Origin: an uncultured Acidobacteriota bacterium
GTDB lineage: Bacteria; Acidobacteriota; JAQAZP01
NCBI GenBank assembly: GCA_963836075.1
Contig: CAWIIB010000009.1
Span: 1,440,001-1,504,000 of the forward strand
DNA: 64,000 nucleotides
Direction: 5' to 3'
Part shown: one piece after another, positions 10,120 to 37,382 of the stretch
Position numbering within the stretch: the stretch's first letter is position 1
Layout: each line of letters starts with the position of its first letter
The notes under the pieces: model-generated
Database searches by the model: none
What the model saw: the letters and a program-made list of their open reading frames with translations, nothing else
What the model was told of the DNA's origin: nothing
Translations under genes and position numbers: made by a program

Positions 10120-11086
10120 GCGCACCGCACTCGTGGAACTTTCGGTGGTCATCCCCACCTACAACCGGCTGGAGATTCTCCGTCGCGCCCTGCGGCTGCT
10201 GGCGGAGGAGGGGGAGGCCTTTGGCGCGCCCCACGAAGTGCTGCTGGTGGACGACGGCTCGACCGACGGCACCGCGGACTACCTGGCCGGCGATACCGTG
10301 CCGCGGGCCTCCACCGCACGGTTGCGGGTGATCAGCCAGGAGAATGCCGGTCCGGCCCGGGCCCGGAACCGCGGCGTGCAGGAAGCCGCCGGCGAACTGG
10401 TGCTCTTTCTCGGCGACGACATCCTGGTCACCCCGGGTCTGCTGGCCCTGCATGTGGAGGCTCACCGGTCCAGGAGCGGTTCCGGCGAGGTGGCGGTCCT
10501 CGGCCGCACCCTCTGGGCGCCGGAGATGCGTCCCAACGCTTTTCTCCGTTTTTTGATGGAGGGCGACCAGTTCGGTTTCAAGCACATCGAGGATCACGAA
10601 AACGTGCCCTATAATTTCTTTTACACCGCCAACGTCTCCCTGCGCCGCCAGGCGATGCTCGACGCCGGACTGTTCGACGAGAGCTTCCCCCACGCGGCCT
10701 GGGAGGATGTGGAACTCTGCTACCGGATGACCCGGGACGGGATGCGGCTGGTCTACGAACCACGGGCCCTGACCCACCACCTGCACCCCACCAGTCTCGC
10801 CTCCTTCTGCCGCCGCCGGGAACTGGTGGGGGTGGATGCGGTGCGGCTCTACCGCACACACCCGGAGACGGAAAAGATGCTCGCCTTCGACTGGCGACCC
10901 ACCGAGGACCCGGCACTCTGGAAACGGCGATCCGCGGAGTGGTTCGAGAGCACGTACGCCTGGCTGGAGCAGCGGCGGCTGGACCGCGGCCCGCTCTGGG
11001 CCTGGCGGTTTTTCTTCCGCCGCCTCTCCTGGTACCATTACTTCAAGGGCGTCCGGCAGGGGCTGGCTGAGGAGGATGGGCAGTGA
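10112..11086 (+). CDS. Glycosyltransferase family 2
   Basis: SVVIPTYNR, VDDGSTDGT, GPARARNRG, FLGDD, FDESF...WEDVEL. Confidence 0.92.
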   Translation: MSERTALVELSVVIPTYNRLEILRRALRLLAEEGEAFGAPHEVLLVDDGSTDGTADYLAGDTVPRASTARLRVISQENAGPARARNRGVQEAAGELVLFLGDDILVTPGLLALHVEAHRSRSGSGEVAVLGRTLWAPEMRPNAFLRFLMEGDQFGFKHIEDHENVPYNFFYTANVSLRRQAMLDAGLFDESFPHAAWEDVELCYRMTRDGMRLVYEPRALTHHLHPTSLASFCRRRELVGVDAVRLYRTHPETEKMLAFDWRPTEDPALWKRRSAEWFESTYAWLEQRRLDRGPLWAWRFFFRRLSWYHYFKGVRQGLAEEDGQ

Positions 11087-12162
11087 TGTTTTCGATTATC
11101 GTTTTCAATTACAACGGCGGCACCCGGCTGGAAAACTGCCTGGCTGCACTGAAGTCGCTCCGGGCCCCCGAGGGGGCGGAGCTGGAGCGGCTGCTGGTGG
11201 ACGTCGACTCGGGCAGCGGGTTGGCCGAACGGATGAAGGCCCAGGATCCCGGGTTACGGCTGCTCAGCATGCCGGTGCGCCTCGGCCTCACCGAGTCGCT
11301 GAACCAGGCGGCCCGCGCCTCCGCCGGGCAGTACCTGGCCATGGTCCACTTCCACCAGGTGCTGCACCCCTCGTGGCTCACCGCCTGTTTCCAGCCCCTG
11401 GAGTCGGCGGGGGCCGCAGGGACACCAGCCTGCACCTTTTCCCACAGCGCCACCGACCTGGCCAGCGGGCGGGTCTGGGAGGCGGGTGACACCAGCGGTC
11501 TGACCGAGGTGCTCCACCCGTCCCCGGGGGCCATGCTGGTCGAGCGGGAAGCTTTTGTCGAATGCGGTGAATTCGACGGTGATTACTATGTTGCCGAGGA
11601 GAACGTGGACCTCGGTTTCCGGCTCTGGCAGCAGGGCCGGACCGTGGTGCGGGTGAGCGGCGACCTGGCCCGGTCCTCCGGGCCGGGGGTTATCGGCCAT
11701 TACGGCAAGGCTGAACAGTCCTTCTTCCACACACGCAACCGTCTGTTCACCGTGATCAAGAACTACGAACTGGACTCCATCTACCGCATTCTCCCCACCC
11801 TGCTGGTGGAAATGTTCAGCGATGTCTGGAGCCGTGCCGGTCTGGACTGGGAGCGCTACCGCTTTGAGCGGGCCGCGAAGAAGTTCGCTGGTGACGAGGC
11901 GAAGATCACCCCCGAGGCCGCGGCGGGACTGCTGGCTCTGGACGACCTGCTGGGCCGTTTCGACCGTCTGCGCTCCACCCGGCGGGCCGTCCAGGCGGCG
12001 CGCCGGCTTTCCGACGCCGAGATCTTTTCCCGGGTGCCCCACCCCTACGACACCCACCGGCCGTCGGAAGCCGGACCGGCGGAGTCCTCGCTCATCGAGC
12101 GCTTTCGCCTCCTGATGGAGGCGCTGGCCGAGGAGGATGGCGGAGGCGCAGCGCGGTCATGA
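11083..12162 (+). CDS. GT2-fold protein with degenerate catalytic motifs
   Basis: SIIVFNYNG, FDGDYY, VDLGFRL and RNRLF keep the GT2 scaffold, but the NND position reads HFH and EDVD reads ENVD. Confidence 0.7.
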   Translation: MMFSIIVFNYNGGTRLENCLAALKSLRAPEGAELERLLVDVDSGSGLAERMKAQDPGLRLLSMPVRLGLTESLNQAARASAGQYLAMVHFHQVLHPSWLTACFQPLESAGAAGTPACTFSHSATDLASGRVWEAGDTSGLTEVLHPSPGAMLVEREAFVECGEFDGDYYVAEENVDLGFRLWQQGRTVVRVSGDLARSSGPGVIGHYGKAEQSFFHTRNRLFTVIKNYELDSIYRILPTLLVEMFSDVWSRAGLDWERYRFERAAKKFAGDEAKITPEAAAGLLALDDLLGRFDRLRSTRRAVQAARRLSDAEIFSRVPHPYDTHRPSEAGPAESSLIERFRLLMEALAEEDGGGAARS

Positions 12163-14099
12163 TTCCAGGTGTTATCCAGTTCCGGGTTTCCACTGCCGCC
12201 TGTCTGCTGGCCGCCCTGCTGGTCCAGGGCTGCGGCGGCCGGGGAGTGCAGCCGGTGGAACTGGTGATCGACCGGCCGCTGGTGCTGCTGGCCGGCCATT
12301 TCCAGCCGCCGGCCACCCCGGAGGGGGAGGACCCACCTCCGGAGCGGCTGACCATCGACGGTGAGTGGCGCGAGGTGGTTCACGCCCACCCGCCATCGGT
12401 CCACCGCTTCCGGATGGTTCCCGGGCCCCAGACGCGCCTGCTCTTCGGCGCTGCGGTGAACCCCGCCGCCTGGCCATTGCTCCGCGGCGACGGTGTCCGC
12501 TTCTCCGTCTCCGTCACCGGGGGCAGCCATCCGGCGGACCCGGCATGGGAGCGGCTGGTGAACCCGCGGGGTAACCCGGAGGACCGGCACTGGTTCGACG
12601 GTGACCTGGACCTCTCGGCCTGGGCCGGTGAGCCGGTGACCGTGGAACTGCGTACCGCGGCGGGGCCGGAAGGGGACGAGGAGTTCGACTGGGCGGTCTG
12701 GAGCGACCCACGCCTGGTCTCCGGGCCGGAGGCCCGTGAGACCCACCCGGAAAACCTGGTCCTGATCACCGCCGACACCCTGCGCGCCGACCACCTCGGC
12801 TGCTATGGCGCTGACCTGCCGCGCACACCGCACCTCGACCGGCTGGCCCGGAGCGGGGCCCAGTTCACCCGCGCCTGGAGCCAGTTCAACACCACCACCG
12901 CCTCCCACTGCTCGATCATGACCTCGCTCTACGGGCCCTCCCACGGAGTGGTGGACAACCTGATGACCCTGCACCAGAGCCGCCTGACCCTGGCCGAGCT
13001 GCTCACCGCCGAGGGCTATTACTGCGGGGCGGTGACCAGCGTGGCCCACCTCGACCCCGCACTGTCGGGCCTGGGGCAGGGGTTCCGTTCCTTCAATGCC
13101 GTGGAGCATGAACGTCTGGCTGAAGACGCGGTGACCACGGCCGCGGCCTGGCTGGACCGCAACGGGAGCAGCCCCTTCTTTCTCTGGCTGCACCTGTTTG
13201 ATCCGCACATCTTTTATGACCCGGGGAGTGAATACCTCCCCCGGCGCGCGGCGGTGGACTGCGGGAACTGGCCGGAGATCATCCGCCGGCAGGAGGAGAT
13301 GCGGGCCGCCGAACTGGCTGCCGGCGGCAGGCTCCGGGCCTACCAGTGGGACGGCCCCTTCTTCATGAACGATGCGATGCGGGCGGAACTGCTGCAGGAG
13401 CAGCGACGTGACCTTCCGGGGCGGGCCTATGCCGGGGAAGTGGCCTATCTCGATTTCTGCATCGGCCGGTTGATGGCACTGCTGGGGACGCTGGGTCTCG
13501 AGGAGAGTACGGCGGTGGTCTTCGTGGCCGACCACGGTGAGAGCCTCGGCGAACACGAGATTTACTTCGACCACCGTGGGTTGTACGATGTGAGCCTTCA
13601 GGTTCCCCTGCTGATGCGGTTGCCCCGCATCGCGGGCCGGGACCTGGTGGAATCTAATCTGGTGGAGACGGTGGACATTCTCCCCACCTGCTGTCAGGCC
13701 CTGGGGTTGGCAGCGCCGGAGGGTGTCCAGGGCCAGAGCCTGCTGCCCCTGCTGGAAGGTGGAGCGCCAGGCGGTCTGCGTGGAGCGGTGTTCGCCCAGC
13801 ACGCCGACAGCCTGGCCTACACCGTCTCCGACGGAACCTGGAAGCTGATCGCCATGGAGAGCGACCAGCCGATGATCACCGCCAGCGGCGGCGACGAGCT
13901 GTACAACCTGGCCGAGGACCCCGGGGAGACGCGCAACCTCCTGCGCGAAAACCCCGAGGAAATGGTGCGCCTGGCGCAGATGCTCCAGCGCTGGCTGACC
14001 CTCACCGTCCGGGACGACCTGCCCGACAGGCCGGCGCTCCCGGCGGAGGAGATGGCCAGGCGAGAGGAAAAGCTGAAAGCGCTCGGCTACCTCCAGTGA
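12159..14099 (+). CDS. Sulfatase-fold (alkaline phosphatase superfamily) lipoprotein, Thr-type, paralog 1
   Basis: Lipobox LVQGC; ADTLRADHLG; NTTTASHCSIMTS; HLFDPH; ADHGES; ends KLKALGYLQ. Confidence 0.85.
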   Translation: MIPGVIQFRVSTAACLLAALLVQGCGGRGVQPVELVIDRPLVLLAGHFQPPATPEGEDPPPERLTIDGEWREVVHAHPPSVHRFRMVPGPQTRLLFGAAVNPAAWPLLRGDGVRFSVSVTGGSHPADPAWERLVNPRGNPEDRHWFDGDLDLSAWAGEPVTVELRTAAGPEGDEEFDWAVWSDPRLVSGPEARETHPENLVLITADTLRADHLGCYGADLPRTPHLDRLARSGAQFTRAWSQFNTTTASHCSIMTSLYGPSHGVVDNLMTLHQSRLTLAELLTAEGYYCGAVTSVAHLDPALSGLGQGFRSFNAVEHERLAEDAVTTAAAWLDRNGSSPFFLWLHLFDPHIFYDPGSEYLPRRAAVDCGNWPEIIRRQEEMRAAELAAGGRLRAYQWDGPFFMNDAMRAELLQEQRRDLPGRAYAGEVAYLDFCIGRLMALLGTLGLEESTAVVFVADHGESLGEHEIYFDHRGLYDVSLQVPLLMRLPRIAGRDLVESNLVETVDILPTCCQALGLAAPEGVQGQSLLPLLEGGAPGGLRGAVFAQHADSLAYTVSDGTWKLIAMESDQPMITASGGDELYNLAEDPGETRNLLRENPEEMVRLAQMLQRWLTLTVRDDLPDRPALPAEEMARREEKLKALGYLQ

Positions 14100-14116
14100 G
14101 CGCGGATGCCTGAGAA

Positions 14117-17869: not shown

Positions 17870-17885
17870 TGGAGGATGACCACCG

Positions 17886-19091
17886 GTGAACCCCTCGCTG
17901 ATCCACCGCCTGATCTGTCCCTACTGCCGCACGCACGGTCTGGGCCTCTACGTGCTGGAGGACGAGCCGCGGGCCGGAGCGGGAGAGCCGGGTGCGGAAC
18001 AGCAGGGGGAGGTGTCGGCCGGACTGATCTCCTGTGGCGGCTGCGGCCGCTTTTTCCGCATCGAGGCCGGTGTGCCGTCGCTGATCTTCGGCGGCGACGG
18101 CGGCTGGCTCGCACCCTTCCTGGCCCGCTGGGGCGATGAGCTGGAAGGGCGGCTGGACCGCACCCTGCCCCGTGACGACTCCCTGGACGAGGTGCTTGCC
18201 GACGGCGATTTCTGGGCCCGGTTCTACCGCCAGGCCATGGAGCGCGGCTATCTCCACTTCCTCGATGTCCAGCAGCCGCTGGCCCCGCTCTACCTCCACG
18301 GCGTGCTGGAAACGCTCCATTTCTCCGGTCCGGATGGCCGTTTCAACTTCGAGCACCAGCCCTTTCTCAAGCAGGTGCTCAGCAGCCTGACCCGGGGGGC
18401 CGGGGCGTTGCCGCCGGGCGGCAGCCTGCTGGAGCTGGGCTGTGGTTCGGGGTGGCTCTGTCTCGAGCTGGCCCGGCGGGGACTGCGGCCGGTGGGTCTG
18501 GACACCGGTTTCCAGTCGCTGGTCCTGGCCCGGCTCTACGCCAGGCAGCAGGGGCTGGACATCGACTACGTTCACGCCGACGGCGGCCGGCTGCCCTTTG
18601 CCCCCCGGAGCTTCGACGGCCTGGTGGGCTTCCAGGCCCTGCACCACATCCCCCGCCTGCTGGAAACGGCCCGTCACCTGCGCACCATACTGCAGCCCGA
18701 CGCGCCGGTGGTGATCTTCGAGCACCGTGCCGAACGGACGCCACGGCTGCAGCGGTTTGCCGAGAACCTGCACCAGCGGCTCCTCCTGCGGGTGGGCGGC
18801 CGCTACCTGATCCACTCCATCTTTCCCTCCCGGGCGTCGGCAAACGAGGACTGTTCGCTGGACCAGGTGGACGAGATGCTGGACGGGTTCCGCTCCCTGC
18901 GGCGCAGGCGCTACTACCTCTTCCTCCAGGACCTGCCGGGGTTTGCCTACCTGCTGGTGGGGCGCAGCCGGCTGGTGTTCAGACTCACGGCGGCAATGAC
19001 CAACGGGGTGGACCGGCTCTTCTCGCTGTTCCGGCCCTCGACCTGCGAGCACATCCTCCAGGTGGGACGGAACCGTGGGGAAACGGGATGA
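17886..19091 (+). CDS. Class I SAM methyltransferase with N-terminal Trm112-like zinc module
   Basis: LICPYC...ISCGGCGRFFRIEAGVP; LLELGCGSG, ADGGRLPF, ALHHIP. Confidence 0.85.
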   Translation: MNPSLIHRLICPYCRTHGLGLYVLEDEPRAGAGEPGAEQQGEVSAGLISCGGCGRFFRIEAGVPSLIFGGDGGWLAPFLARWGDELEGRLDRTLPRDDSLDEVLADGDFWARFYRQAMERGYLHFLDVQQPLAPLYLHGVLETLHFSGPDGRFNFEHQPFLKQVLSSLTRGAGALPPGGSLLELGCGSGWLCLELARRGLRPVGLDTGFQSLVLARLYARQQGLDIDYVHADGGRLPFAPRSFDGLVGFQALHHIPRLLETARHLRTILQPDAPVVIFEHRAERTPRLQRFAENLHQRLLLRVGGRYLIHSIFPSRASANEDCSLDQVDEMLDGFRSLRRRRYYLFLQDLPGFAYLLVGRSRLVFRLTAAMTNGVDRLFSLFRPSTCEHILQVGRNRGETG

Positions 19092-21493
19092 GACACCTGC
19101 TGCTGTTCATCGCCCTGCTTACCCTCTGCTCCGGCTGTGCAGCGCCGGAAAGGGTGGAGCAGGGAAGCCCCCAGGCCCTGGCCACCCTGGCCAGCGGGGT
19201 GGTGGACCTGGTGAGCCTGGCCAGCGCCACGGGGGAGAGCGCCGGCGATGGACGGGCGGAGGTACCGAGGAGACGCTGGAACAGGCGGAGCAGGTGGTTC
19301 GCGAATACGGTTTCGACGGAAACTGGCCGCTGCAGGGGTGGGAGGCCTGGAAGGACTGCGGACGTTTTCTGCCCCGGGACGGGGTCCTGCAGATAGAGGC
19401 CATCGGCGAGGATTTCCAGATGGCCGTGCCTCCCGATTTCGACTGTTCGCGGGTCCAGCGGGTGCTGGTCCGCGCCCGGGTCTCGGACGGCAACCGCGGC
19501 CACCTGTTCTGGATGACCGAGGACCAGCCGACCTATGACGGCCAGCGGTCGATCCAGTACCTGGCTCCATCCCGGAGAGGAGTTCCGTACCTACACCATC
19601 GAGGTGGGGGAGCACCTCAAGTGGGGCGGCCGGATCACCGGCCTGCGTCTGGACCCCATCGACAAACCGGGCACGGTGGAGATCGATTTCATCCGCTTCA
19701 TGGCCGGGCGGAACCGGCTGCGGACCGACCTGCTGGCCGCCCGCTGCGGTCTTCCGGACGCGGCCCTGGCCCTGCGCGACGACCGGCGGCGGGTACTGGC
19801 GGTGGCCCCCGCACAGCCGGTGCAGTTCGACCTCCTGGTACCCGGGGGTGCGGGTGCGGCTTCGCCCGAGCTGCGCTTCGCCATCGGTCTGGCAGCGGCC
19901 GGCCCCGACGGCCGGCAGGCCGTGCCCCGGGCCTCCCACCGGTTCCTGATCCGCACCGGCGACGGCGAGACGATTTTCAACCGGGTGCTCAACCCGGAGA
20001 AAAACCGTGCCCATGGCGGCTGGCGCGAGGAGCGAGTGAACCTGGGCCGGTTCGCCGGGAGCCGGCTGGGGCTCACCTTTGCCGTGGAAGCCCTGGGCGA
20101 CTGGGAAGACCAGGACGGCGTCGCCCTGTTCGCCAACCCGCTGCTCCACCCGGCCCCGGGGGTCTTTTGCCGGCTCAGCGTGCTGGTGGTGCTGGTGGAT
20201 GCCCTGCGCGCCGACCGCCTGGGGTGCTACGGTCACCACCGGGGGACCACGCCGCACATCGACCGGCTTTGCCGGCAGAGCGTGCTCTTCCGCAACGCCC
20301 TCTCCAGCTCCTCGTGGACCGCGCCCTCGGTGGCCTCCCTGTTCACCGGGCTTCACCCTTACCGCCACGGCGTCCGCTACGTCGATACCCTCGACCTGGA
20401 CCGCCGTTTCGAGACCGTGGCTGAGCGGTTTGACGCCGCCGGGTGGTTCACCGGCGCTGTTTCGGACAACCTGCTGATCACTCCGGACAACGGTTTCGAC
20501 CAGGGTTTTCGGACCTTTGTTTCCAAACCGCTCACCACGCACATGCGCAAGGCCCGGGCAGTGACCGACATCGCCCTGGGCTGGCTCGAGCACCACGGCG
20601 ACCGGCCCTTCTTTCTCTACCTGCACTACATGGACCCCCACGCCAACTACCGGCCGCCAAAGCCGTTCCATCCCGGTCCCCCACCGTCCGGCGCCGAAAT
20701 CCGCGACTTTGTGGAAAAGGGCGAGGCCGGGGGCGTGGCCAACCGCTTGCAGAAGAGCCGCCGTTTCCGGCTTTCGGCAGCCGAAGACCAGCGTCTGCTC
20801 GATCTGTACGAGGGCGAGGTGGCATCCACCGATTACCAGGTGGGGCGGCTGCTCTCCTGGCTGGAGCGGTCGGGGCTGGCCGACGGGACAGTGGTTGTTT
20901 TTGTCGCCGACCACGGCGAGGAGTTTGCGGACCACGGCAGGTACGCTCACGCCACCTCGCTGTTCGACGAACTGGTGCGGGTGCCGCTGCTGGTCCGGCT
21001 CCCCGGCCGGCAGCTGCCGGCACGGCAGGTGGAGCAGGTGGTGTGCAGCGCCGACCTGGGGCCCACTCTGCTCAGCCTGGCCGGGGCACCGGGTTTCACC
21101 GGCGAGGTGGACGCCCTCTCCTTCACCGGGCTGCTGGACCAAAGCCGGCCGGCCGCCGAGCAGCGGGAGGCCTATTTCGAGCTGAACCCCTACTCGCGCA
21201 ACCCGCTGGCTCCGGGCACCATTGAAGCCACCCGGGGACTGCGCTTCGGCCGGCTGAAGCTGCTCTACGAAGTGCGCACCGGCCGCTACCGGCTTTACGA
21301 CCTGGCGGCCGATCCCGGTGAGCGGGCGTCGCTCTACGACGAGGAGGACCGCCGGTCGATGGAGATGGCGGCCCGCCTCTCCCGCTACCTGGAAGATGCC
21401 GGACAGGCCGATGGCGCGGGCGTTGCCGACGGGGGGCTGCTGGAAGACCGCCAGCTGCAGCAACTGGACGCTCTGGGCTATCTCGACCGCTAG
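19088..21493 (+). CDS. Sulfatase-fold lipoprotein, Thr-type, paralog 2 (~801 aa; two compensating apparent frameshifts near 19265 and 19560)
   Basis: ATG 19088 MRHLLLFIALLTLCSGC lipoprotein signal overlaps the previous stop; the middle ~100 codons read sensibly only in the 19075 frame; the remainder (19535 frame) has VDALRADRLG, WTAPSVASLFTG, HYMDPH, ADHGEE and ends LDALGYLDR. Confidence 0.75.
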
Positions 21494-21507
21494 GAGAGGG
21501 AGGATCG

Positions 21508-28398: not shown

Positions 28399-28631
28399 AG
28401 TCAATAAACAAGACCGTTTCGGCCGGGCCCGGGCCATTTTGTGGATGCTGCTCCACCGGCCTTGTGGTATTGTGAATTTCACCCCCCGCGGCAATCGGGT
28501 GTGGCGCATGCCCCGGCCGGGGCTGGCCAGACGTCATCTCCATCCGGTTCCGGTCAGGATTTCCAACAGACATGCCGATAAGCAGGGGGGGGAGAATTGC
28601 GGCAATACTGAGCCTTTTGGAGGTGACACCG

Positions 28632-31600
28632 GTGTATCCTTACCGTATACAAGAGAGCAGCGGTCCGCGGCGGTCCCGTTCGGGGCGGCGGGCCTTTCTG
28701 ATGGTCCTGATTCCTGTCGTGCTGGTGCTGGCCGGGGCTCTGCCCTGTGCGGCGCAATACACGGCACCAACCATCACGGTCACCGAACCGGACGGTGTGG
28801 CGGACAAGGTGGTGACGGCGGACAGCTACGCCGAAAAAATACTCCAGGACCCCTGGGACATGGACCAGGAGACCGATCTCCACTATTTCATCGACCAGTT
28901 CCGCGACAGCGGTTTCACCACCAGCAGCGGGGACTCGGTCTGGACCGGCGTGTCGCTGCCCACCCCGCAGACCGGTGACCCGTCGACCACCTCCGACTGC
29001 TCGATCATCATCCTCCACCCGGGCCACTCGAGCGCGGTGAACGCCGGACGCAAAGGGGTTAACCACCCGATCATCGCCTCCACCTACCGCTACCTCTCGT
29101 TCCGGATGTATGTCTCCCGCGACACCAAGTCACAGCTGATCTGGTACAACGACGTGATTAACGTGCCGCCTGAGGACGGTGCCGTCAGTGCTTCGGAGTT
29201 CTTCCAGTCCTACGAGGGCTGGCAGGTCTACACCGTTGACCTGGCCGCCCTGGGCACGCTCTCCGGTCCGGCGTGGGGCGGGGAGGTCTACGGCCTGCGT
29301 CTCGACCCGGCCAACGAGAAGGACGTGCGGGTGACCATCGACTGGATCCGCCTGCACAGCGCGGTCAGCGGCAGCAACGTCAAAACCGTGCGCTGGAACC
29401 ACAGCGACCCCAACGGCCAGGCGGTGGTCAGCCTCTTTGCCAGCCGGGAGGACCAGCTGGGCCGGGGTCTCGACGCGGTTTATGACGTGGCGACCATGGC
29501 GGTGGACGCCAGTTCCGGCAGCTACAACTACAACGTGGGCCACCTGGCCGGCGAATCGTTCAACCTCTTCGCCCTGATCGGGGAGGAGTACGCCCAGGTG
29601 GTGCTCAACGACGGTTGGGACATGAGCCAGGCCACCGACCTGGAGGGCTACGGGAACGTCTCCGGGGTCTCGTTCAGCAACGGCATTTTCCGCTGCACCT
29701 CCACCGGCGGCGACCCCTATGTCATGCCTCGCATCGCGGGGCGCTACCCGATCTCGGCCGGCACGTTCCCCGTGCTCTCCTTCCGCATGTATCTCAGCCA
29801 GGCCAACAGCTACGAGGTGCTGTTCCGCCGCGAGGGCAGCACCGCCTGGCACAGTATCGGCTTCCATACCGCGCAGACCGGCTGGCAGACCTACACCGTG
29901 GACATGCGGGAGAGTTCGGCCTGGACGGGGGACATCAGCACCCTGCGCATTGACCCCATCTTCGACACCGGGTCGGTGGACATCCGTTTTGACTGGGTGG
30001 CCCTCAGCACGCCCAACTCCAGCACTGCCGGAGAAGACACCACCGACCTGAGCCGCAGCCCGGGGCCGCTCACGGTGAACCACGCCCCGACGATCCAGTT
30101 CACGGCGCCCTCCTGGGACACCGGTGCCGATTATGCCACCACCGTGCTGGGCAATGCCTGGGACATGGCCCAGGAATCCGACCTGCGGAGCTACAGCGAG
30201 CTGACCAACGTGTCCTTCACCCCGACCAACGGCCTCACCGCCACTACCACCCACTCCGATTCGCAGATGATCTACCGCGACCTCACCGGACAGCCCATCG
30301 ATGGCGACTACTTCAACACGCTCAGTTTCGACCTGTTTCTGGAGGACCCCATCGCCGATCCGGCGGACACCGCCAGCGGCACGCTGCGCTTCGACGTGGC
30401 CCGGGTGCTCTTCCGCACCAGCCATGACGTGCAGGAGACGTGCACCGACGACCTGGTGCTCTATTTCGGCTACCAGGACCACCCGACCATCAGCGGTCTG
30501 AGAAGTCAGGACCGCAGCGGCTGGGTCCGCCACCACCTGTACCTGCCCGACGCCCAGCTGGAGCCGGACAGCGACGTCTTCGACCACATCCCCTGGGGGG
30601 GCAGCGAGGGCTGGTTCCGTCTCGACGCTTCGGAGTATGGCCAGGGCATCGGCGGTGGACGGAAATACCGCCTGCGCAACGTCAAGCTCACCGCGGACGA
30701 CGAGTCCTTTGGCGAGTATGTGATCCGCTGGGCCGATCTCGACCCGGACGACAACGCCCGGATCACCTTCTTTTACGACGACAACAACACCGGCTACGAC
30801 GGCATCCAGATCAACGAGTCCCTGATCTACGAGAACGAGGACGGCACCGGAGGGAGCTACACCTGGCAGACCGGCGGCATCCCCGAGGGCCTCTACTGGC
30901 TCCACGCCCGGATCACCGACACCACCGCGGTGACCAAGGTCTACGCGCCGCGGCCGGTCTACATCCATTACACCGATATCCCCGACACCGATCCGCCTTA
31001 CCTGGCGGACCAGTATCCACCGCCCGGCTCGGTGGGAGCGTCCCCCTACAACCGGATCCTGACCCACGTGCGCGACGACTATTCCGGGCCCGATCCCGGC
31101 TCGCTGATCATGCGGGTGGACGGCGGCATCGTCACGCCGTCCGTCTCCGGCGGCGGTCGCGACCTGGTGCTGGAATACGACCCCTCGGGCACGCTCTCCT
31201 TCGGCCAGAATGTCACCGTGTGGGTCATCGCCCGGGACCAGGCCGCCGACCCGCACCTGATGGACGAGGTCTACAGCTACCAGGTCACATCCTCCCAGGA
31301 TTCGGACGGCGACGGCCTGCCTGACGAGTGGGAGACGATGAACGGTCTCGACCCGGGTGATGGCACCGGCGATCACGGCGCCGACGGCGACGCCGATGGC
31401 GACGGCCGGAGCAACCGGGACGAGTACGAGGGGGGCGCAGACCCCACCAGCCCGGCGCTGATCCTCGCCGCCCCGGGATCCGGGCCGGAAAACCCGCCGG
31501 AAGGCCGTGGCTACTACACCGACGGCACGCCGGTGGACTGGCTGCAGTTCACCGCCTACGGGGTGATCGCCTGGGGTCTCAACCTGGCCGGCGGGGACAT

Positions 31601-32471
31601 TGACGGTGACGGCATCGACGAGGTGATCACCGGACCCGGTCCGGGCGCGGTGTTCGGACCCCACGTGCGCGGCTGGAAGATGGCCAACGACACGGCGGCG
31701 CCCATGCCCCAGGTGAACTACTTTGCTTACGGCACCTTGAAGTACGGGGTGAACGTGGCCTGCGGCGACGTGGACGGCGACGGGTACGAGGAGATCATCA
31801 CCGGCGCCGGTCCCGGCGCGGTGTTCGGCCCCCACGTGCGCGGCTGGAACTACGACGGCTCGGCGATCAGCGCCATCAGCGCCATCAGTTACTTTGCCTA
31901 CGGCACGCCCAAGTACGGGGTCAACGTCACCCTGGGGGACATCGACGGCGACGGGTACGAGGAGATCATCACCGGCGCCGGACCGGGCACGGTGTACGGC
32001 CCCCACGTCCGCGGCTGGAACTATGACAACTCGGCCATCGCCGCCATCCCCAGCGTCAGTTTCCTGGCCTACTCCACCAACCAGTGGGGGGTCAACGTGG
32101 CCTGCGGCGACATCGACGGTGACGGCATCGACGAGATCGTCACCGGCGCCGGACCGGGAACCGTTTTCGGTCCCCACGTCCGCGGCTGGAACGTGGACGG
32201 CGGCCAGGCCGTCCCCCTCAGCCAGGTCAGCTTCTTCGCCTTCGACACCACCAGGTGGGGGGTCAATGTGGCCTGCGGCGACTTTGACGGTGACGGCGTG
32301 GACGAGATCGTGGCCGGCCCCGGGCCGGGATCCGAGTTCACCACCGATGTGCGGGCCTTCAACTGGGACGGCAGCGGTGCGGTGAGCCAGATGGAAAACG
32401 CCAGCTTCCGGGCCTACGATCCCTCGGTGACCCACGGCGCGAAGGTGGGAGCGGTGCGGCTGGGAGACTGA
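28632..32471 (+). CDS. Large secreted surface protein (three repeated WDM-containing modules, Ca-binding DxDxDG repeats, C-terminal FG-GAP repeats)
   Basis: GTG 28632 after GGAGGTG; GRRAFL plus hydrophobic signal; three YA..VL..AWDM.Q..DL-type modules; DSDGDGLPDEWE, DADGDGRSNRDE; five G[VL]N[VL]..GD.DGDG..E[IV]..G.GPG repeats. Confidence 0.85.
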   Translation: MYPYRIQESSGPRRSRSGRRAFLMVLIPVVLVLAGALPCAAQYTAPTITVTEPDGVADKVVTADSYAEKILQDPWDMDQETDLHYFIDQFRDSGFTTSSGDSVWTGVSLPTPQTGDPSTTSDCSIIILHPGHSSAVNAGRKGVNHPIIASTYRYLSFRMYVSRDTKSQLIWYNDVINVPPEDGAVSASEFFQSYEGWQVYTVDLAALGTLSGPAWGGEVYGLRLDPANEKDVRVTIDWIRLHSAVSGSNVKTVRWNHSDPNGQAVVSLFASREDQLGRGLDAVYDVATMAVDASSGSYNYNVGHLAGESFNLFALIGEEYAQVVLNDGWDMSQATDLEGYGNVSGVSFSNGIFRCTSTGGDPYVMPRIAGRYPISAGTFPVLSFRMYLSQANSYEVLFRREGSTAWHSIGFHTAQTGWQTYTVDMRESSAWTGDISTLRIDPIFDTGSVDIRFDWVALSTPNSSTAGEDTTDLSRSPGPLTVNHAPTIQFTAPSWDTGADYATTVLGNAWDMAQESDLRSYSELTNVSFTPTNGLTATTTHSDSQMIYRDLTGQPIDGDYFNTLSFDLFLEDPIADPADTASGTLRFDVARVLFRTSHDVQETCTDDLVLYFGYQDHPTISGLRSQDRSGWVRHHLYLPDAQLEPDSDVFDHIPWGGSEGWFRLDASEYGQGIGGGRKYRLRNVKLTADDESFGEYVIRWADLDPDDNARITFFYDDNNTGYDGIQINESLIYENEDGTGGSYTWQTGGIPEGLYWLHARITDTTAVTKVYAPRPVYIHYTDIPDTDPPYLADQYPPPGSVGASPYNRILTHVRDDYSGPDPGSLIMRVDGGIVTPSVSGGGRDLVLEYDPSGTLSFGQNVTVWVIARDQAADPHLMDEVYSYQVTSSQDSDGDGLPDEWETMNGLDPGDGTGDHGADGDADGDGRSNRDEYEGGADPTSPALILAAPGSGPENPPEGRGYYTDGTPVDWLQFTAYGVIAWGLNLAGGDIDGDGIDEVITGPGPGAVFGPHVRGWKMANDTAAPMPQVNYFAYGTLKYGVNVACGDVDGDGYEEIITGAGPGAVFGPHVRGWNYDGSAISAISAISYFAYGTPKYGVNVTLGDIDGDGYEEIITGAGPGTVYGPHVRGWNYDNSAIAAIPSVSFLAYSTNQWGVNVACGDIDGDGIDEIVTGAGPGTVFGPHVRGWNVDGGQAVPLSQVSFFAFDTTRWGVNVACGDFDGDGVDEIVAGPGPGSEFTTDVRAFNWDGSGAVSQMENASFRAYDPSVTHGAKVGAVRLGD
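31570..32365 (+). repeat. Five intragenic FG-GAP-type tandem repeats (~174-180 nt period)
   Basis: Recurring nucleotide and protein unit, e.g. GGGGTCAACGTGGCCTGCGGCGAC...CCCCACGTCCGCGGCTGGAAC (GVNVACGD.DGDG..EI.TGAGPG.VFGPHVRGWN). Confidence 0.9.
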
Positions 32472-32492
32472 CCGGACGAGAAACGTATTCTT

Positions 32493-32535
32493 CGGCGCCG
32501 GGTGTTCGCCGCTTCAACAGGCGGGACCCGGCGTC
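32493..32535. terminator. Hairpin between convergent genes (possible bidirectional terminator)
   Basis: GGCGCCGGGT...ACCCGGCGTC outer stem with inner CGCC/GGCG; lies between the stops at 32471 (+) and 32538 (-); no strong U-tract. Confidence 0.45.
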
Positions 32536-32537
32536 TT

Positions 32538-34826
32538 CTACTGTACATACCCCAGGGCGCGGAGCCGCTCCAGCTCCTGCTCGTCGAGCACCTCGGAGTT
32601 CTGCGGAACGGAGTTCAGGAGGTCTGAGCCGGCTTCGGCAAACCAGGCCTCCATCCGCCCGCGCATCTCGGCTTCAACCTCGGGCACGGTTCCCATCAGG
32701 TCCTTTCGCTCACCCGGGTCATCCTCGATATTGAACAGCTGTTCCGCCGGCGGCCCGTGACTCATCAGCCAGCGGCCCTGGGCTGTCTGCGGCACTTCCC
32801 CGTCGAAGGCCTTGCGGTTGAAGTAGATATATTTCCAGGGCGGCCGGATGACGGAAAAGCGGAGCGGCGCGTGAGCCGAGGTGAACGAGAAGAGCGTGCG
32901 GGCGTCATCAAACCGGCAAATGTTCCGGCCGTCACCGCGGTCCGGGTTGGCCGGCAGCCCGGCGATGGCGCTCAGAGTCGGGGCCACATCCACCAGCGAC
33001 ACCGGCGTGTGCACCACGCTGCCCGCTTCGGGGCCCGGCTCCGGCAGCCGGAGGATCAGCGGCACGTGCAGCACCTCCTGGTAGAGGGTACTGCCATGAC
33101 CCCAGTAGCCGTGATCGTGCAGTTCATCCCCGTGATCGGCGGTGACCAGCAGTGCAGTGCCCTCCAGCAGCCCTTCCCGGCGCAGGACGGCCAGCAGACG
33201 GCCCAGCTGGAAGTCGGTGTACTCGCTCCCCCGGTCATAGAGCCGGCCAACATGTTCCACCCCGGCGGGACCGGGCCGCTCCACCCCGCTTTGCAAAGAT
33301 CGGAGAAAGCCCTCCCCCCAGCCCGGCCTGATCCACGGATCGCTGGATGCCCGGATGTCAGGGGGTGGCCCGGGCCAGGGGGCGTTGTACGGGGCGTGGG
33401 GATCCATGTAGTGGATGTAGCAGAAGGTCTGCTCGCCGCGGTGTGCGCGGAGCCAGCGGAGAACTTTCCGGTTCAGGTCCCCGGCGGTGGGGGGACCGTC
33501 CAGGTGCGGGGCCACATACCAGGTGTGGAAGCCCCGGGGGAAGCCCTTGTTACTGGTGAGCAGGCAGTTGGCCGAGAAGCCGCCGGTGGTGTATCCGGCG
33601 TCGGAGAACCGTTGGGCCAGGGTGGTGTGATCGGTCAACCGGCCGCCGTGGCCCCGGGCCAGCTGTTCCGGGCCGGGGTGGCGGCCGGTGAAGGTGGAGG
33701 CCACCGAGGGGATGGTCCAGGAGCAGGGGGCGGTGGTGGCGCTGAACAGCATCCCCTCCCCGGCCAGCCGGGCCAGGTGCGGGGAGGTCCGGCGGTGGTG
33801 GCCGTAGAGCGAGAGCCGGTCGGCCCGCTGGGCATCCAGCACCACCAGCAGCACCGACGGGCGGGGAGGACCGTCTCCCCCCCGGACCTCCGGCGTGCCG
33901 ATGAGCCGTATCGCCCCGGGACTGCTGTCCCGGATGCTGAAGCGGAGGGAGACCTCCTGGCCAGACCAGGAGGAGAGGTCCACCTGCACTTCCTGCCACC
34001 CGCTGCCGGGGAGGGGAAGGGAGTGCTGGGACAGCTCCGCCAACAGCGTTTCTCCCCGGAACAGCTCCACGGTCAGTTCCGCCGGGCTCCGGCCGCGCAG
34101 GGTTCCCAGGGCAAAGCTCAATTGTGCCTGCTGTTCGGGCAGGCAGAGGGTGACCGTGCGGTCAGCCGTACCGGCCAGACGCCAGCAGCGCCGGTACTGG
34201 TGCTCCAGGCCGATCCTCGACCGGGAGAGCACGTGCCGGGCAAGGAATTCGTCCTGCCGGGGGATGATGGCCAGTCTTTTGAGCACCGACGACCTTCTGC
34301 CGGTGCCGGGGTAGAGCCGCAGGGCCTCGATCGGTTTTGCCAGGGCCTCCGGCGCGGGGAGCCTGAAAGCCATGATCTGCTGTCCCCTGTCCGGATCGCT
34401 CTCCACCCTGATCCGGTTTGACGGCCGGTATCCGGGCGGGTCAGCGCTGGTATAGAGCATGATCGCCGGCTGCCCCTGATCCGGGTCCAGCACCGCCAAT
34501 AGCTGCTGGTAGTGGAGCAGGTCCACGGTGACCTGTTTCTCCACCCATGGTGGTGAGCCGTCCGCAGATTCCAGCCGGAGTCCCCCCGACCGCAGTTCGA
34601 CCTTCACCCCCTCGGGGCCGGCGGTCCAGCCCTCGGGCAGGCCCCGGTCAAAGTTCCAGACCATGCGGGGAGCGCGGGTTCCGACGAAATCCATTGCCAG
34701 GTCGGGCGGCAGGAGATCGAGCAGGTCGATCACCCGGAAATCGTCCGGTGTGGCCGGGGGGCCGCAGCCGACCGCGGTCAGGATCAGCACCAGGGTCAGT
34801 GCAATGGAAATCGTTGACGTCTGCAT
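32538..34826 (-). CDS. Sulfatase-fold lipoprotein, Thr-type, paralog 6
   Basis: Lipobox TAVGC; LDAQRADRLS, WTIPSVASTFTG, HYMDPHAPY, ADHGDE; ends LRALGYVQ. Confidence 0.88.
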   Translation of the reverse strand: MQTSTISIALTLVLILTAVGCGPPATPDDFRVIDLLDLLPPDLAMDFVGTRAPRMVWNFDRGLPEGWTAGPEGVKVELRSGGLRLESADGSPPWVEKQVTVDLLHYQQLLAVLDPDQGQPAIMLYTSADPPGYRPSNRIRVESDPDRGQQIMAFRLPAPEALAKPIEALRLYPGTGRRSSVLKRLAIIPRQDEFLARHVLSRSRIGLEHQYRRCWRLAGTADRTVTLCLPEQQAQLSFALGTLRGRSPAELTVELFRGETLLAELSQHSLPLPGSGWQEVQVDLSSWSGQEVSLRFSIRDSSPGAIRLIGTPEVRGGDGPPRPSVLLVVLDAQRADRLSLYGHHRRTSPHLARLAGEGMLFSATTAPCSWTIPSVASTFTGRHPGPEQLARGHGGRLTDHTTLAQRFSDAGYTTGGFSANCLLTSNKGFPRGFHTWYVAPHLDGPPTAGDLNRKVLRWLRAHRGEQTFCYIHYMDPHAPYNAPWPGPPPDIRASSDPWIRPGWGEGFLRSLQSGVERPGPAGVEHVGRLYDRGSEYTDFQLGRLLAVLRREGLLEGTALLVTADHGDELHDHGYWGHGSTLYQEVLHVPLILRLPEPGPEAGSVVHTPVSLVDVAPTLSAIAGLPANPDRGDGRNICRFDDARTLFSFTSAHAPLRFSVIRPPWKYIYFNRKAFDGEVPQTAQGRWLMSHGPPAEQLFNIEDDPGERKDLMGTVPEVEAEMRGRMEAWFAEAGSDLLNSVPQNSEVLDEQELERLRALGYVQ

Positions 34827-34838
34827 GAGGTATCGATG

Positions 34839-37214
34839 CTACTGGATATAGCCCAGCGCTTCCAGGGCTTCCCGCTCCCGCCGGTCCAGGGCCTCGCTGG
34901 CGGGACCGGCTTCCGTCTGGTCGAGAACGGTATTCACCATGTTCTTCAACTCCCCGACCTTGTCCGGCCGGTCCCCGGCCAGGTCCGAGGTTTCACCCGG
35001 ATCCACCGACAGGTCGAAGAGTTCGTCTTCACCGGTCAGCCTGTTGTGAATCAGCTTCCACCGGCCGTAATGGATCCCCGACAGGTTGCTGTTGAACGGT
35101 GGGTTGACCCAGGATCGCTTGCGGGTCTCGAAGAACCTGGGCTGACCGGTCTCACCCGCACCCTGTGGCTCTGCCCCGGCGTCCCCGAGCAGCAGGGGCA
35201 GGCGGCTCCGGCCCCGGAACAGTTCGGGGAGCGGGATGTCCATGAAATCGAACAGCGTGGGAACAATGTCGAGCAACTCGATCGGCCGGGCCACCTGCTG
35301 CGGCTGCTCGATCCCGCAGCCGGGAGGGAAGAGGATCAGCGCCGGTACGTGGACCAGTTCCCGGTAGAGCGACTGGCCGTGGTTGACCAGGCCGTGCTCG
35401 AAGAACTCCTCGCCGTGGTCGGCGATGACGACGACGATGGTGTTGGAGAGGATCCCCCGCTGGTCGAGAGATGCCAGCAGCCGGGCCAGTTGCCGGTCCC
35501 AGTAGCCGATGCCCTCGTCGTACTGCCCGGCCATGGTGCTCCGGTCATGCCGGTCAAGGGAGCACTGGCCGTGTTCCACGAACTCCCTGACAACGGGAAG
35601 CAGTCCGCCGTCCCAGGCCTGCCCCTTCAGCCGGCCGCTGCCAAACACCTCCGGTGCCGTCGATTCGGGTGAGCCGTACGGTGCGTGGATGTCCATGTAG
35701 TGCAGCCAGGCGAAGAACCGGGTTCTGTCCAGGGTCGGCAGATACTTGAGCAGCCGCCGGTTGATTTGCGGGGCGTCCTCGAAGACCAGGCTGTTGTCGA
35801 AACGGTGAAACCCCCGCGAGAACCCGGCTTCGGGGCGCATCAACGGGTTGGAGACGATGGCCACGGTCTGGAACCCGTTTGCGGAAAAAATTTCGCCGAT
35901 GGTCGGGGCCCCGGCGGGCAGCCTCCCGGCCTGCGCCTCCTGGCTGATCCCGCTGTAGTAGTTGCCGCAAAACATGGAGCACATCGAGGGGTAGGTTTCC
36001 GGGGCCTGGGCGGCTGCATCGCAAAAGGTGACGGCCTGCCGTGAGAGGCGGTCGAGGTGCGGGGTGAGCCGTTGACCGGCCCCCCCCGGTCCGGTGCGGT
36101 CGGCACGGAGGGTATCGGCCAGGACAATGATGACATTGTACGGCCGGTGGTCAGGCCCTGCTCCCGCGGGCCAGGTGAGGACCAGCGGGCCCCAGGCGTG
36201 CAGCGGCGGGTGTGAGGCGCTTTTTCCCTCCTCTTCCGCGGTGAGCTCCAGCCGGATCTTCCTGCCGGCCAGTTCTGCCAGCGGGAGCTGCCGGTTGACC
36301 CACCGGATGCCTGCGGCCTGGTTTGTCCTCTGCTCCTTCGAACAGACCAGGGTGGACTCTTTTCCGGCTGTCGTGTCCGGGGCCCCGTTGTCTGCGGGGA
36401 GCGGTCGGGCGGTGACCCGGCAGATCACCGGCCCGGCCGCTGCGGGTGAGAAGTGCGGCAGCTGGGCCACGGAATAGTGCAGCACAGTCCCCTCCGGGAG
36501 GGCCGCCGCAAGCTCGATGGTCACCGGGCCCGTTGAGACGATGGCCTGATGCTGGATCCTCTCCAGCAGCAGTCCGGCCCGTGTCCGGGGCAGGGTCAGT
36601 TCGATTTCGGAGAGGGCCAGGCGGCCCGATTCCTCCGGCACCAGCACTCCCTCCTGCCGTTTTCTCACGCTGAGCAGTATCTCGTTCTCCCCCTGGTGGA
36701 ACCGGGAGGCCGGGATGATCAGGTTGAAGGGGAACCAGCCGGGGTCCATGGGGCGGGCGAGCAGGCGCTGACCATTGAGGCTGACCACGACCCGCGGTCG
36801 GTCGTCACCGCGATCGGCACGGTCCCCGTGGAAGACCTGGACGTCCAGGCAAACCTTCACCTTGCCCCCCTCCCCCGGCCAGAAGGGCAGGTGGATGCCG
36901 GCCTCGGGGCCGGTGGAGAGCACGCAGGGCTGCCCGTCCCGCTGATGATCTCCGGCGGCCCAGCCCTGGGAAAGGATGGGGCTTCCCGCCCGGGCGGGGA
37001 TGTTGATCGGTACGGGTGACTCCGACGATCCCGCCCAGTGGAAATCAGGGGCCAGCAGGTCCAGAGCGTTCGGACCCAGGTTCCCCTGGAGGAGTTCCCC
37101 GCCCCGGTCGCTGCGGCACGAAAAGCAGAGGAGCAGGGCCAGGATCAGGGCGGCCGGGGAGATGGCCAGACAGAACAGCTGGTTTCTTGATACTGTGATC
37201 TTCAGCGTTCTCAT
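34839..37214 (-). CDS. Sulfatase-fold lipoprotein, Thr-type, paralog 7
   Basis: Hydrophobic signal ending LCFSC; ADTLRADRTG, ETYPSMCSMFCG, HYMDIHAPY, ADHGEE; ends LEALGYIQ. Confidence 0.88.
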   Translation of the reverse strand: MRTLKITVSRNQLFCLAISPAALILALLLCFSCRSDRGGELLQGNLGPNALDLLAPDFHWAGSSESPVPINIPARAGSPILSQGWAAGDHQRDGQPCVLSTGPEAGIHLPFWPGEGGKVKVCLDVQVFHGDRADRGDDRPRVVVSLNGQRLLARPMDPGWFPFNLIIPASRFHQGENEILLSVRKRQEGVLVPEESGRLALSEIELTLPRTRAGLLLERIQHQAIVSTGPVTIELAAALPEGTVLHYSVAQLPHFSPAAAGPVICRVTARPLPADNGAPDTTAGKESTLVCSKEQRTNQAAGIRWVNRQLPLAELAGRKIRLELTAEEEGKSASHPPLHAWGPLVLTWPAGAGPDHRPYNVIIVLADTLRADRTGPGGAGQRLTPHLDRLSRQAVTFCDAAAQAPETYPSMCSMFCGNYYSGISQEAQAGRLPAGAPTIGEIFSANGFQTVAIVSNPLMRPEAGFSRGFHRFDNSLVFEDAPQINRRLLKYLPTLDRTRFFAWLHYMDIHAPYGSPESTAPEVFGSGRLKGQAWDGGLLPVVREFVEHGQCSLDRHDRSTMAGQYDEGIGYWDRQLARLLASLDQRGILSNTIVVVIADHGEEFFEHGLVNHGQSLYRELVHVPALILFPPGCGIEQPQQVARPIELLDIVPTLFDFMDIPLPELFRGRSRLPLLLGDAGAEPQGAGETGQPRFFETRKRSWVNPPFNSNLSGIHYGRWKLIHNRLTGEDELFDLSVDPGETSDLAGDRPDKVGELKNMVNTVLDQTEAGPASEALDRREREALEALGYIQ

Positions 37215-37296: not shown

Positions 37297-37382
37297 TCGC
37301 GCGCCCTGAATGCCCCGTCATCAGGGCCATGGGGGCTTTTTTTCCGTTATCCGGGCGGCGGCAGACAAGGTTTCAGAGGCAG

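Follow-up and report, generated by a model that had tools for sequence, protein, structure and literature searches.

Threonine in place of the formylglycine residue in seven sulfatase-fold proteins of an uncultured Acidobacteriota bacterium: candidate phosphoryl-transfer enzymes of the envelope

Seven sulfatase-like genes at the locus

The stretch of DNA described here (the window, 64,000 nucleotides, G000:C9:1440001-1504000) belongs to the 6.23-Mb genome, assembled in 10 contigs, of an uncultured Acidobacteriota bacterium. Its region 12159-37214 contains seven open reading frames (ORFs), denoted S1 to S7, which match the Pfam family Sulfatase (PF00884) with E values of 2.6e-35 to 2.9e-50. Each of the proteins has 200-400 residues ahead of its sulfatase domain. 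The seven genes are listed below, together with their catalytic columns, which were read from a hidden Markov model (HMM) of the family catalytic domain aligned to all stop-to-stop ORFs of the genome.

12159..14099, + strand: S1, 646 residues; motif TTASH; columns DTRD / T-TTASH / DPH / DHGES; PF00884 E 3.3e-37; PF01663 54.1 bits; lipobox-like LLVQGC
19088..21493 (body ORF 19535-21493), + strand: S2, frameshifted; motif TAPSV; columns DARD / W-TAPSV / DPH / DHGEE; PF00884 E 2e-47
21508..23841, + strand: S3, 777 residues, the copy that was modelled; motif TLPSV, with Thr381 at nt 22648-22650; columns DTRD / W-TLPSV / DPH / DHGEE
23819..26107 (likely extent; ORF from 23555), + strand: S4; motif TVPSV; columns DTRD / S-TVPSV / DPH / DHGEE; lipobox LTGC
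26104..28398, + strand: S5, 764 residues; motif TIPST; columns DTRD / W-TIPST / DPH / DHGEE; lipobox LTAC
32538..34826, - strand: S6, 762 residues; motif TIPSV; columns DARD / W-TIPSV / DPH / DHGDE; lipobox AVGC
34839..37214, - strand: S7, 791 residues; motif TYPSM; columns DTRD / E-TYPSM / DIH / DHGEE; lipobox-like CFSC

Nucleophile and sulfate-handling residues

A first-pass annotation, made from the sequence alone, had reported threonine at the nucleophile position and loss of the formylglycine motif in all of these proteins. The HMM columns bear this out in seven copies of seven, and the motif strings given there are reproduced exactly; all seven likewise preserve the metal-ligand motifs D-x-x-R-A-D, D-[PI]-H and DHG-[ED]. 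In phmmer alignments with sequences from the PDB, Thr381 of S3 (whose numbering is used throughout) falls on the Cys/Ser (formylglycine) position of 7oz8, 4upi and 6hhm, and Val385 on the Arg of the sulfatase motif, which passages of two papers (PMC12421950; PMC5066984) give as C/S-x-P/A-x-R. At the position of this Arg all seven window copies have Val, Thr, Met or His.

The Cys-type sulfatases of the same genome, serving as an internal control, carry DDxG, C-x-P-x-R, GK[WN]H and DNG, as well as a Lys farther downstream. In the GK[WN]H columns, S1 to S7 read TSVA, SDNL, SANF, VTNP, SANF, SANC and VSNP, respectively, the Lys/His pair being gone. The sulfatase Lys that follows DHG is replaced by His, which corresponds to His590 of S3 both in the HMM columns and in the phmmer alignment with 7oz8. 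None of the seven proteins has the C/S...R motif, the Lys and His of GKxH, or the Lys after D-[NH]-G. In turn, the sulfatase α/β fold and the Asp...Asp-His/Asn metal set are present, with Asp341, Asp577 and His578 conserved. With all four classes of sulfate-handling residues missing and the metal ligands retained, the seven are, as far as can be judged from sequence, not type I sulfatases, in agreement with the earlier proposal.

The Thr of the seven copies is no chance occurrence, since the same residue prevails in the paralogues of the genome (see below) and in the homologues. Of 8000 proteins scored in the homology search, 844 reached E<=1e-3, and residues were counted in the 120 listed. 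The nucleophile is Thr in 119 of these and Ser in one, whereas Arg never occurs at the motif-Arg position, where the residues are Val (66), His (19), Thr (16), Met (10), Ile (5), Phe (3) and Ala (1). The other catalytic columns are nearly invariant: Asp341 is found in 120 of the 120, His488 in 119, His578 in 118, and Asp577, Glu580 and His590 in 117 each. Pairwise identity among S1 to S7 is only 26-44%, and the proteins fall into the groups {S3, S5, S6} and {S4, S7}, with S1 and S2 standing apart. These figures suggest that the catalytic residues are under purifying selection and that the seven genes are old paralogues.

Overall fold and N-terminal modules

The AlphaFold2 (AF2) model of S3 has a predicted local distance difference test (pLDDT) score of 88.6 and a predicted template modelling (pTM) score of 0.90. 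It begins with a signal helix, followed by two β-sandwiches (approximately residues 60-200, and 213-324) and then by the catalytic domain (334-750); at the C terminus there is a helix of low confidence (764-773). The top Foldseek matches in the PDB are all sulfatases of family S1 (the family, as distinct from gene S1), phosphonate monoester hydrolases (PMH) or choline sulfatases, with E values of ~1e-24 to 1e-22. A VIA-align comparison of the model with 48,161 representatives gave Z scores of 30-39, over 340-385 residues, for the family S1 sulfatases. For the periplasmic domain of YejM/PbgA, Z is 33.0-33.4 (6vat, Z 33.4, root-mean-square deviation 2.9 over 317 residues; 6xlp, Z 33.0). Z is 30.2 for LtaP, 30.0 for EptC, 27.5 for EptA, 27.3 for LtaS, 26.3 for MCR-1 and 24.7 for Xac NPP.

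The best matches are thus found among the family S1 sulfatases, PMH and choline sulfatases (7oz8, 4upi/4uph, 7pth), with a phmmer E value of 1.2e-35 for 7oz8. Features common to both sides are the N-terminal metal motif DxxRxD, the His of xPH, the metal pair of DHG, and a C-terminal subdomain of SGSH_C type. The seven differ from these enzymes by the Thr in place of Cys/Ser, and by the replacement of the motif Arg, of the Lys and His of GKxH, and of the Lys after DHG. Additionally, the Thr-type proteins possess a lipobox signal, N-terminal modules resembling carbohydrate-binding modules (CBM), and a C-terminal tail with the sequence LRALGY.

When modelled separately, the N-terminal 294 residues of S3 (pLDDT 92.2) form two jelly-roll sandwiches composed entirely of β-strands. 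Their best matches in VIA-align are CBM51, CBM29, CBM22 and CBM15, with Z of 10-12, and a tandem CBM22 is matched by Foldseek with E of 4e-9. This N-terminal modelling covers the S3 type. The Protein Atlas places the S3 N terminus in a GH98 CBM-type cluster with a score of 0.88, below the 0.9 line of reliability, which makes this assignment a lead only.

Comparison with the Thr-type phosphoryl-transfer enzymes

The Thr-type transferases LtaS, EptA and MCR are well known. A family profile built from 40 sequences (A1) was aligned with them using hhalign. With MCR-1.1 (probability 95.9, E 5.6e-9), it pairs Asp341 with Glu246, His488 with His395, Asp577 with Asp465, His578 with His466, Glu580 with Glu468, and His590 with His478. 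In MCR-1, according to passages of the structural paper (PMC5175174), Zn1 is bound by Glu246, Thr285, Asp465 and His466, and Zn2 by His395 and His478. With E. coli EptA (probability 95.6, E 1.2e-8), Thr381 falls on the nucleophilic Thr of the latter. The alignments therefore assign to the seven proteins a putative Thr nucleophile, putative Zn1 ligands and the His pair, that is, the set found in EptA, MCR and LtaS.

The similarity to EptA and MCR-1, as well as to EptC, LtaS and OpgB, comprises the Thr nucleophile, the acidic residue, Asp and His of the Zn1 site, the second site with two His residues, and the Glu of DHGE. A further common trait is a catalytic domain oriented towards the periplasm; the known enzymes have envelope glycoconjugates as their targets. 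In contrast, the five-helix membrane domain is absent from the seven proteins, the kinship is remote (hhalign E ~1e-8), the Z scores are lower (26-30), and fewer residues can be aligned.

A second comparison concerns the NPP family (PF01663), the 23-bit cut-off of which is exceeded by all seven proteins (26.4-54.1 bits). The matches are partial, covering mostly the N-terminal Asp...Thr segment and the DHG region. Candidate residues for an NPP-like bimetallic site are present, namely Asp486, His488 and His590 in addition to Asp341, Thr381, Asp577 and His578, and the D/E-x-H motif together with a His could form a second Zn site. The commonest variant of the nucleophile motif in the family, T-L-P-S-H-x-S-x-x-T-G, with His in 19 of the 120 listed homologues, resembles the TFPNH motif of NPP. 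The differences from NPP are the partial nature of the PF01663 matches, a weaker fold match (Xac NPP, Z 24.7 over 260 residues), and the presence of Val, Thr or Met instead of His after Pro-Ser in six of the seven window copies.

The first-pass annotation had favored phosphodiesterases, or phospho- or sulfo-transferases, over sulfatases. A predicted phosphodiesterase or phosphotransferase activity would agree with the retained residues, which appear to map to the Thr/Zn1/two-His set, and with the PF01663 matches, whereas nothing favors sulfo-transfer. The scaffold of these proteins is sulfatase/PMH-like, and the residues of the active site are phosphotransferase/NPP-like.

Signal peptides, membrane segments and gene starts

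In a hydropathy scan, S1, S3, S5, S6 and S7 each show a single N-terminal hydrophobic stretch followed by a lipobox-like Cys, and no further membrane-like segment. The single hydrophobic stretch of the S2 body ORF lies at residues 203-224, just before the sulfatase domain. S4 has no stretch above the hydropathy threshold; its start is most likely GTG 23819 or TTG 23825 rather than 23555, and a lipobox-like LTGC follows this likely start. The absence of a multi-transmembrane (TM) domain, noted previously, is confirmed in that only the signal peptide is detected in the scan, and the N-terminal part of S3 is predicted to be a β-sandwich rather than helical.

The signal and lipobox segment of S2, MRHLLLFIALLTLCSGC, with the ATG at 19088 and extending to about 19258, shares its frame with the body of the gene, which resumes at about 19562. 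In between, from about 19259 to 19561, the frame is shifted, and the stretch from about 19267 to 19560 is read in another frame. The tblastn alignment of an intact orthologue of S2 from the same genus is split into three collinear segments, which lie in frames 3, 2 and 3 and indicate that S2 carries two compensating frameshifts ~300 nt apart. S2 is thus either a pseudogene or the product of an indel error in the assembly. The earlier statement that every copy has a lipobox-type Cys holds to the extent that a lipobox-like signal can be found in each of them; the lipoboxes of S1 (VQGC) and S7 (CFSC) are, however, non-canonical, that of S2 is separated from the body by the frameshifts, and that of S4 depends on the revised start.

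Size of the family in the genome and the LRALGY tail

The genome contains 88 matches to PF00884. The nucleophile column is covered by 76 ORF rows of this genome, printed as 72 Thr and 4 Cys; two of the 72 are misregistered genes of the Cys type ('CTAG-R'), which leaves ~70 Thr-type and ~6 Cys-type rows, some of them fragments of split genes. Full-length Thr-type ORFs number ~51, with 44 located outside the window. The seven genes are therefore part of a genome-wide expansion and no peculiarity of this locus. Genes with the formylglycine-generating enzyme (FGE) domain are also present (five matches to PF03781, four of them strong). Since both Cys-type sulfatases and FGE-domain genes have been retained, a normal sulfatase system coexists with the Thr-type proteins.

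An L-G-Y motif is present in the last 25 residues of 47 of the 51 full-length Thr-type ORFs, compared with none of the four full-length Cys-type ones. The typical sequence of the tail is L-[RK]-A-L-G-Y-[ILVM]-[QED], and in S3 (LRALGYIE) it is encoded at window positions 23815-23838. Among the 120 listed homologues, 106 have LGY within the last 20 residues; in seven of the remaining 14 this motif is internal, in five of these just before a C-terminal tetratricopeptide repeat (TPR) domain. Ten ORFs from same-genus and distant genomes, among which S1 to S5 have recognizable orthologues, are all of the Thr type and all end with LGY. In the AF2 model of S3 the tail is a detached, low-confidence helix, which could serve as a peptide for docking or sorting, or as an oligomerization arm.

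The expected automatic annotation as sulfatases is indeed encountered: the homologues are named 'sulfatase' or 'arylsulfatase A-like enzyme' in their sources, another name among those listed being 'tetratricopeptide repeat protein'. The named taxa are Acidobacteriota, Thermoanaerobaculia, Planctomycetota and, in one record, Saccharimonadales.

Gene context in the window and in related genomes

The other genes surrounding S1 to S7 were assigned with Pfam/NCBIfam, or with Pfam only where so marked, and encode glycosyltransferases (GT) and other proteins as follows.

4261-5754, + strand: GT1
5796-7499, + strand: radical SAM/SPASM protein
7361-8800, + strand: GT1
8815-10119, 10112-11086 and 11083-12162, + strand: three GT2 genes
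14117-17869, + strand: methyltransferase-GT2-GT1 fusion, 1250 residues (Pfam)
17886-19091, + strand: methyltransferase (Pfam)
28572..32471, + strand: FG-GAP repeat protein, 1299 residues (PF01839, E 4.4e-12, and PF13517)
37329-39914, + strand: MMPL/HpnN-like RND protein
39973-41382, + strand: HlyD-type adaptor
41410-42696, + strand: MacB_PCD/FtsX permease
42718-44214, + strand: outer-membrane efflux protein

A single co-directional string on the + strand extends from 4261 to 32471. It consists of GT1, the radical SAM/SPASM gene, GT1, three GT2 genes, S1, the fusion gene, the methyltransferase gene and S2 to S5, and is closed by the FG-GAP gene. Four-nucleotide overlaps of the ATGA type are found between GT2 and S1, the methyltransferase gene and S2, and S4 and S5. 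S6 and S7, on the - strand, are divergent from the HpnN-like MMPL gene, which is followed by the HlyD, MacB/FtsX and outer-membrane efflux genes. Large FG-GAP proteins are thus encoded in the window at 28572-32471 and also at 51624-53213.

Thirty related genomes were searched, only two of them from the same genus and the others sharing the phylum only; with the source genome counted, 6 of the 31 contain an S3-like match at E<=1e-60. In all three distant relatives examined (an Acidobacteriota metagenome-assembled genome, L001; G024; and G013) the S3-like gene is found amid genes of glycan biosynthesis. The neighbors include GT1, GT2 or GT4, methyltransferase, radical SAM/SPASM, a PIG-L-GT2-GT1 fusion, UDP-glucose dehydrogenase, PMT_2 and GDSL genes. 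A radical SAM/SPASM gene lies between GT1 genes in the window (5796-7499), and another is found at L001:3386-4141. At L001:17-1696, 8 kb upstream of the S3-like gene and beside an ABC ATPase gene, there is an arylsulfotransferase (ASST) gene (PF14269, E 7.7e-29).

The neighborhoods of the paralogues elsewhere in the genome were sampled at 20 loci, with 105 of the 114 neighboring ORFs scanned. Neighbors related to glycan assembly or export were found at 7 of the 20 loci and comprise STT3, PMT_2, a Wzx-type flippase, GT1, Glycos_transf_4 with DegT, and Poly_export. Genes of glycoside hydrolases, lyases or of Sus type were found at none of the 20 at E<=1e-8. Since glycan and export neighbors recur and no glycoside hydrolase occurs in these loci, the family looks envelope-associated and not catabolic. 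FG-GAP genes flank four of the loci (L019, L020, L026, L032).

Two further observations concern the sampled paralogues. At L034:7656-9458 (C9:3166630-3180630), a full-length NPP gene (PF01663, E 2.4e-38) adjoins a Thr-type paralogue, with PMT_2 and TPR genes nearby. Genes of gingipain-type Peptidase_C25 adjoin two Thr-type paralogues, at L020 (C1:2032856-2046856) and L027 (C9:2036424-2050424); in the latter locus the peptidase gene is located beside a Wzx-type flippase gene and a second Thr-type gene.

Proposed function and its alternatives

We propose that S1 to S7 are metal-dependent phosphoryl-transfer enzymes with a Thr nucleophile, acting on envelope glycans, and assign to this reading a probability of about 0.6. 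Since the residues handling sulfate have been lost and the Thr/two-His set of phosphate transfer is carried, their most likely role would be to attach phosphate-linked groups to envelope sugars or to remove such groups. The proteins would be lipid-anchored members of the alkaline-phosphatase superfamily, facing the periplasm or the cell surface, in which a scaffold of the arylsulfatase/PMH type has been kept and the catalytic set of a sulfatase exchanged for one suited to phosphoryl transfer. The residues and their correspondence to those of known enzymes, the fold, the lack of a TM domain and the gene order are results of the analysis; from these we infer the metal content, the phosphoryl chemistry and the substrate, as well as the two possible outcomes, hydrolysis or transfer, as follows.

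A metal ion bound by Asp341, Asp577 and His578 would activate Thr381, which would attack a phosphate ester to yield a covalent phospho-Thr intermediate. A second site, for another metal ion or for the leaving group, would consist of His488 and His590, perhaps together with Asp486, and would be comparable to those of EptA, MCR-1 and NPP. The intermediate could be resolved by water, in which case the enzyme would be a phosphodiesterase, or by a sugar hydroxyl, in which case it would be a phospho-alcohol transferase. In the S3 type, the tandem CBM-like N-terminal modules would hold the glycan, and together with the lipid anchor they would keep the enzyme at the membrane surface on its glycan. The likely substrate would be a methylated glycan or glycolipid, with its assembly encoded by the co-transcribed genes for GT1, GT2 and methyltransferases and its export encoded close by. 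A phospholipid donor of the kind used by EptA and LtaS is disfavored because the TM domain is absent. OpgB, in a soluble form located in the periplasm, transfers phosphoglycerol from one glucan to another. Tentatively, and with more doubt than confidence, the clade can be pictured as a scaffold refitted with a two-metal Thr site, which reaches its place as a lipoprotein equipped with CBM-like modules for holding the glycan and installs or swaps phosphodiester decorations on an exported methylated glycan without a membrane domain, with the LRALGY tail recruiting it to a partner.

Several results weigh against this proposal. Although the first-pass annotation had set the proteins beside LtaS, EptA and NPP, their nearest characterized relatives by sequence and fold are arylsulfatase, choline sulfatase and PMH (Z 30-39) and not LtaS, EptA, EptC and MCR-1 (26-30) or NPP (~25), and the best 60 of the 91 PDB sequences matched by phmmer are all sulfatases, choline sulfatases or PMH, some of them putative. 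No curated NCBIfam cut-off is reached by any of the seven; the best models, arylsulfatase PRK13759 (94.6-174.2 bits) and choline-sulfatase, remain far below theirs, and those of EptA, MCR and LtaS score 18-38 bits against cut-offs of 500-1250. The alignment with MCR-1 is three residues off at the nucleophile, placing Thr381 on Ser288 and Thr285 in an insertion, so that the Thr-on-Thr equivalence rests on EptA and on the much stronger alignments with sulfatases. The known Thr-type transferases use, to our knowledge, a TM domain to reach their lipid donors, and the seven have none. The Z scores of the CBM-like modules are middling, and a common fold of this kind, predicted for S3, would not in itself reveal a function.

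Gene context beyond the window also speaks less clearly. The neighborhoods of the 20 sampled paralogue loci are mixed, and outside the window no enrichment of Thr-type ORFs in the vicinity of GT1 and GT2 genes is seen: 4 of 60 lie within 5 kb of one (random positions, 4.9%) and 4 of 60 within 10 kb (random positions, 9.3%), the reference set being 49 phmmer-detected GT ORFs in which the GT-C and GT4 families are missed. The tight tie to GT genes is thus a property of the subfamily of the window locus only.

The alternative that survives best, although we consider it unlikely, is that the proteins resemble the periplasmic domain of YejM/PbgA/LapC in keeping a sulfatase-like fold while being non-catalytic or nearly inactive; they would be binding or sensor proteins with a glycan or lipid of the envelope as ligand. 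The YejM domain, also envelope-facing and sulfatase-fold without being a sulfatase, is among the top structural matches of S3 (6vat, Z 33.4), the predicted CBM-like modules suggest binding, and binding is a frequent function of surface lipoproteins that form large paralogous families. However, the nucleophile and the metal ligands are kept in 117-120 of the 120 listed homologues despite the 26-44% identity between paralogues, which would be hard to explain without catalysis. Unlike YejM, which is anchored by TM helices, the Thr-type proteins lack a TM domain and conserve the full catalytic set, and they score only 18-30 bits with the NCBIfam model LapC_YejM_PbgA (NF038282), the cut-off of which is 825.

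Less probable still is a role as sulfatases or sulfotransferases that use Thr as the nucleophile without formylglycine. Such a role would agree with the scaffold and with the identity of the nearest characterized relatives, which are sulfatases, as well as with the ASST gene that precedes the S3-like gene by 8 kb at locus L001 and with an adenosine 5'-phosphosulfate (APS) kinase gene near one paralogue (L017). It is opposed by the replacement of the motif Arg, of the Lys and His of GKxH, and of the second sulfate-binding Lys, and by the presence in the same genome of ~6 canonical Cys-type sulfatases together with FGE-domain genes. Members of the superfamily with Ser or Thr nucleophiles are known to show only weak, promiscuous sulfatase activity, which also counts against this alternative.

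Finally, a post-translational oxidation that would turn the Thr into a keto residue, equivalent to formylglycine with an additional methyl group, and would restore sulfatase-like hydrate chemistry is very improbable: a radical SAM/SPASM gene that might perform it is present in the operon (5796-7499) and another is near the S3-like gene in L001, and an oxidized Thr would be a ketone according to a passage by the SulfAtlas authors (PMC5066984), whereas the radical SAM protein of the window is not among the 13 weak matches of its genome to the anaerobic sulfatase-maturating enzyme (anSME) model TIGR03942, none of which reaches the cut-off, its best NCBIfam matches are generic maturase models (TIGR04311, 'putative metalloenzyme maturase') below their cut-offs, the Arg and the other residues acting together with formylglycine are gone, and one maturase would be required to serve ~51 dispersed paralogues. 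An Mn-dependent arylsulfatase was rejected as a precedent, as that enzyme uses Cys/formylglycine (PMC12421950).

Relation to previous work and implications

That PF00884 holds proteins of the Thr type that cannot be called sulfatases was already stated in passages of the SulfAtlas paper of 2016, with Thr found in 30 of 59 Pfam seed sequences (PMC5066984). No paper was found on a clade of Thr-type, TM-less, sulfatase-like lipoproteins, in a search outside the scope of which lay most subscription journals and supplements, which leaves the absence of such a paper unproven. The existence of Thr-type non-sulfatases in PF00884 is thus already known, and the lipoprotein clade itself appears to be uncharacterized. 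Its apparently new set of features would comprise a sulfatase/PMH scaffold, EptA/NPP-like residues, a lipoprotein without a TM domain, a CBM-like N terminus, the LRALGY tail, and dozens of paralogues per genome.

For genome annotation, the 88 PF00884 matches compared with ~6 ORFs with sulfatase chemistry mean that a 'sulfatase count' of this genome would be inflated about ten-fold. Counting Thr-type genes as sulfatases would badly overstate the degradation of sulfated polysaccharides in these lineages. In terms of enzyme evolution, the clade offers a natural swap of the nucleophile and binding site on a scaffold of the sulfatase type, with residues converging on the EptA/NPP set, and should be of use to studies of promiscuous enzymes in the alkaline-phosphatase superfamily. 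If the proteins are transferases, they would be the first of their kind to work without a membrane domain, which would point to a new donor and to a new glycan decoration. For annotation the clade is a genuine trap of considerable size, and for enzymology a good target, but it is not a conceptual surprise.

Other features of the window

A gene at 53715-55511 of the window, on the - strand, encodes a SagB-type peptide dehydrogenase with a nitroreductase fold (TIGR03605, E 7e-28, above the cut-off). It may be part of a cluster for a ribosomally synthesized and post-translationally modified peptide (RiPP) of the azoline type.

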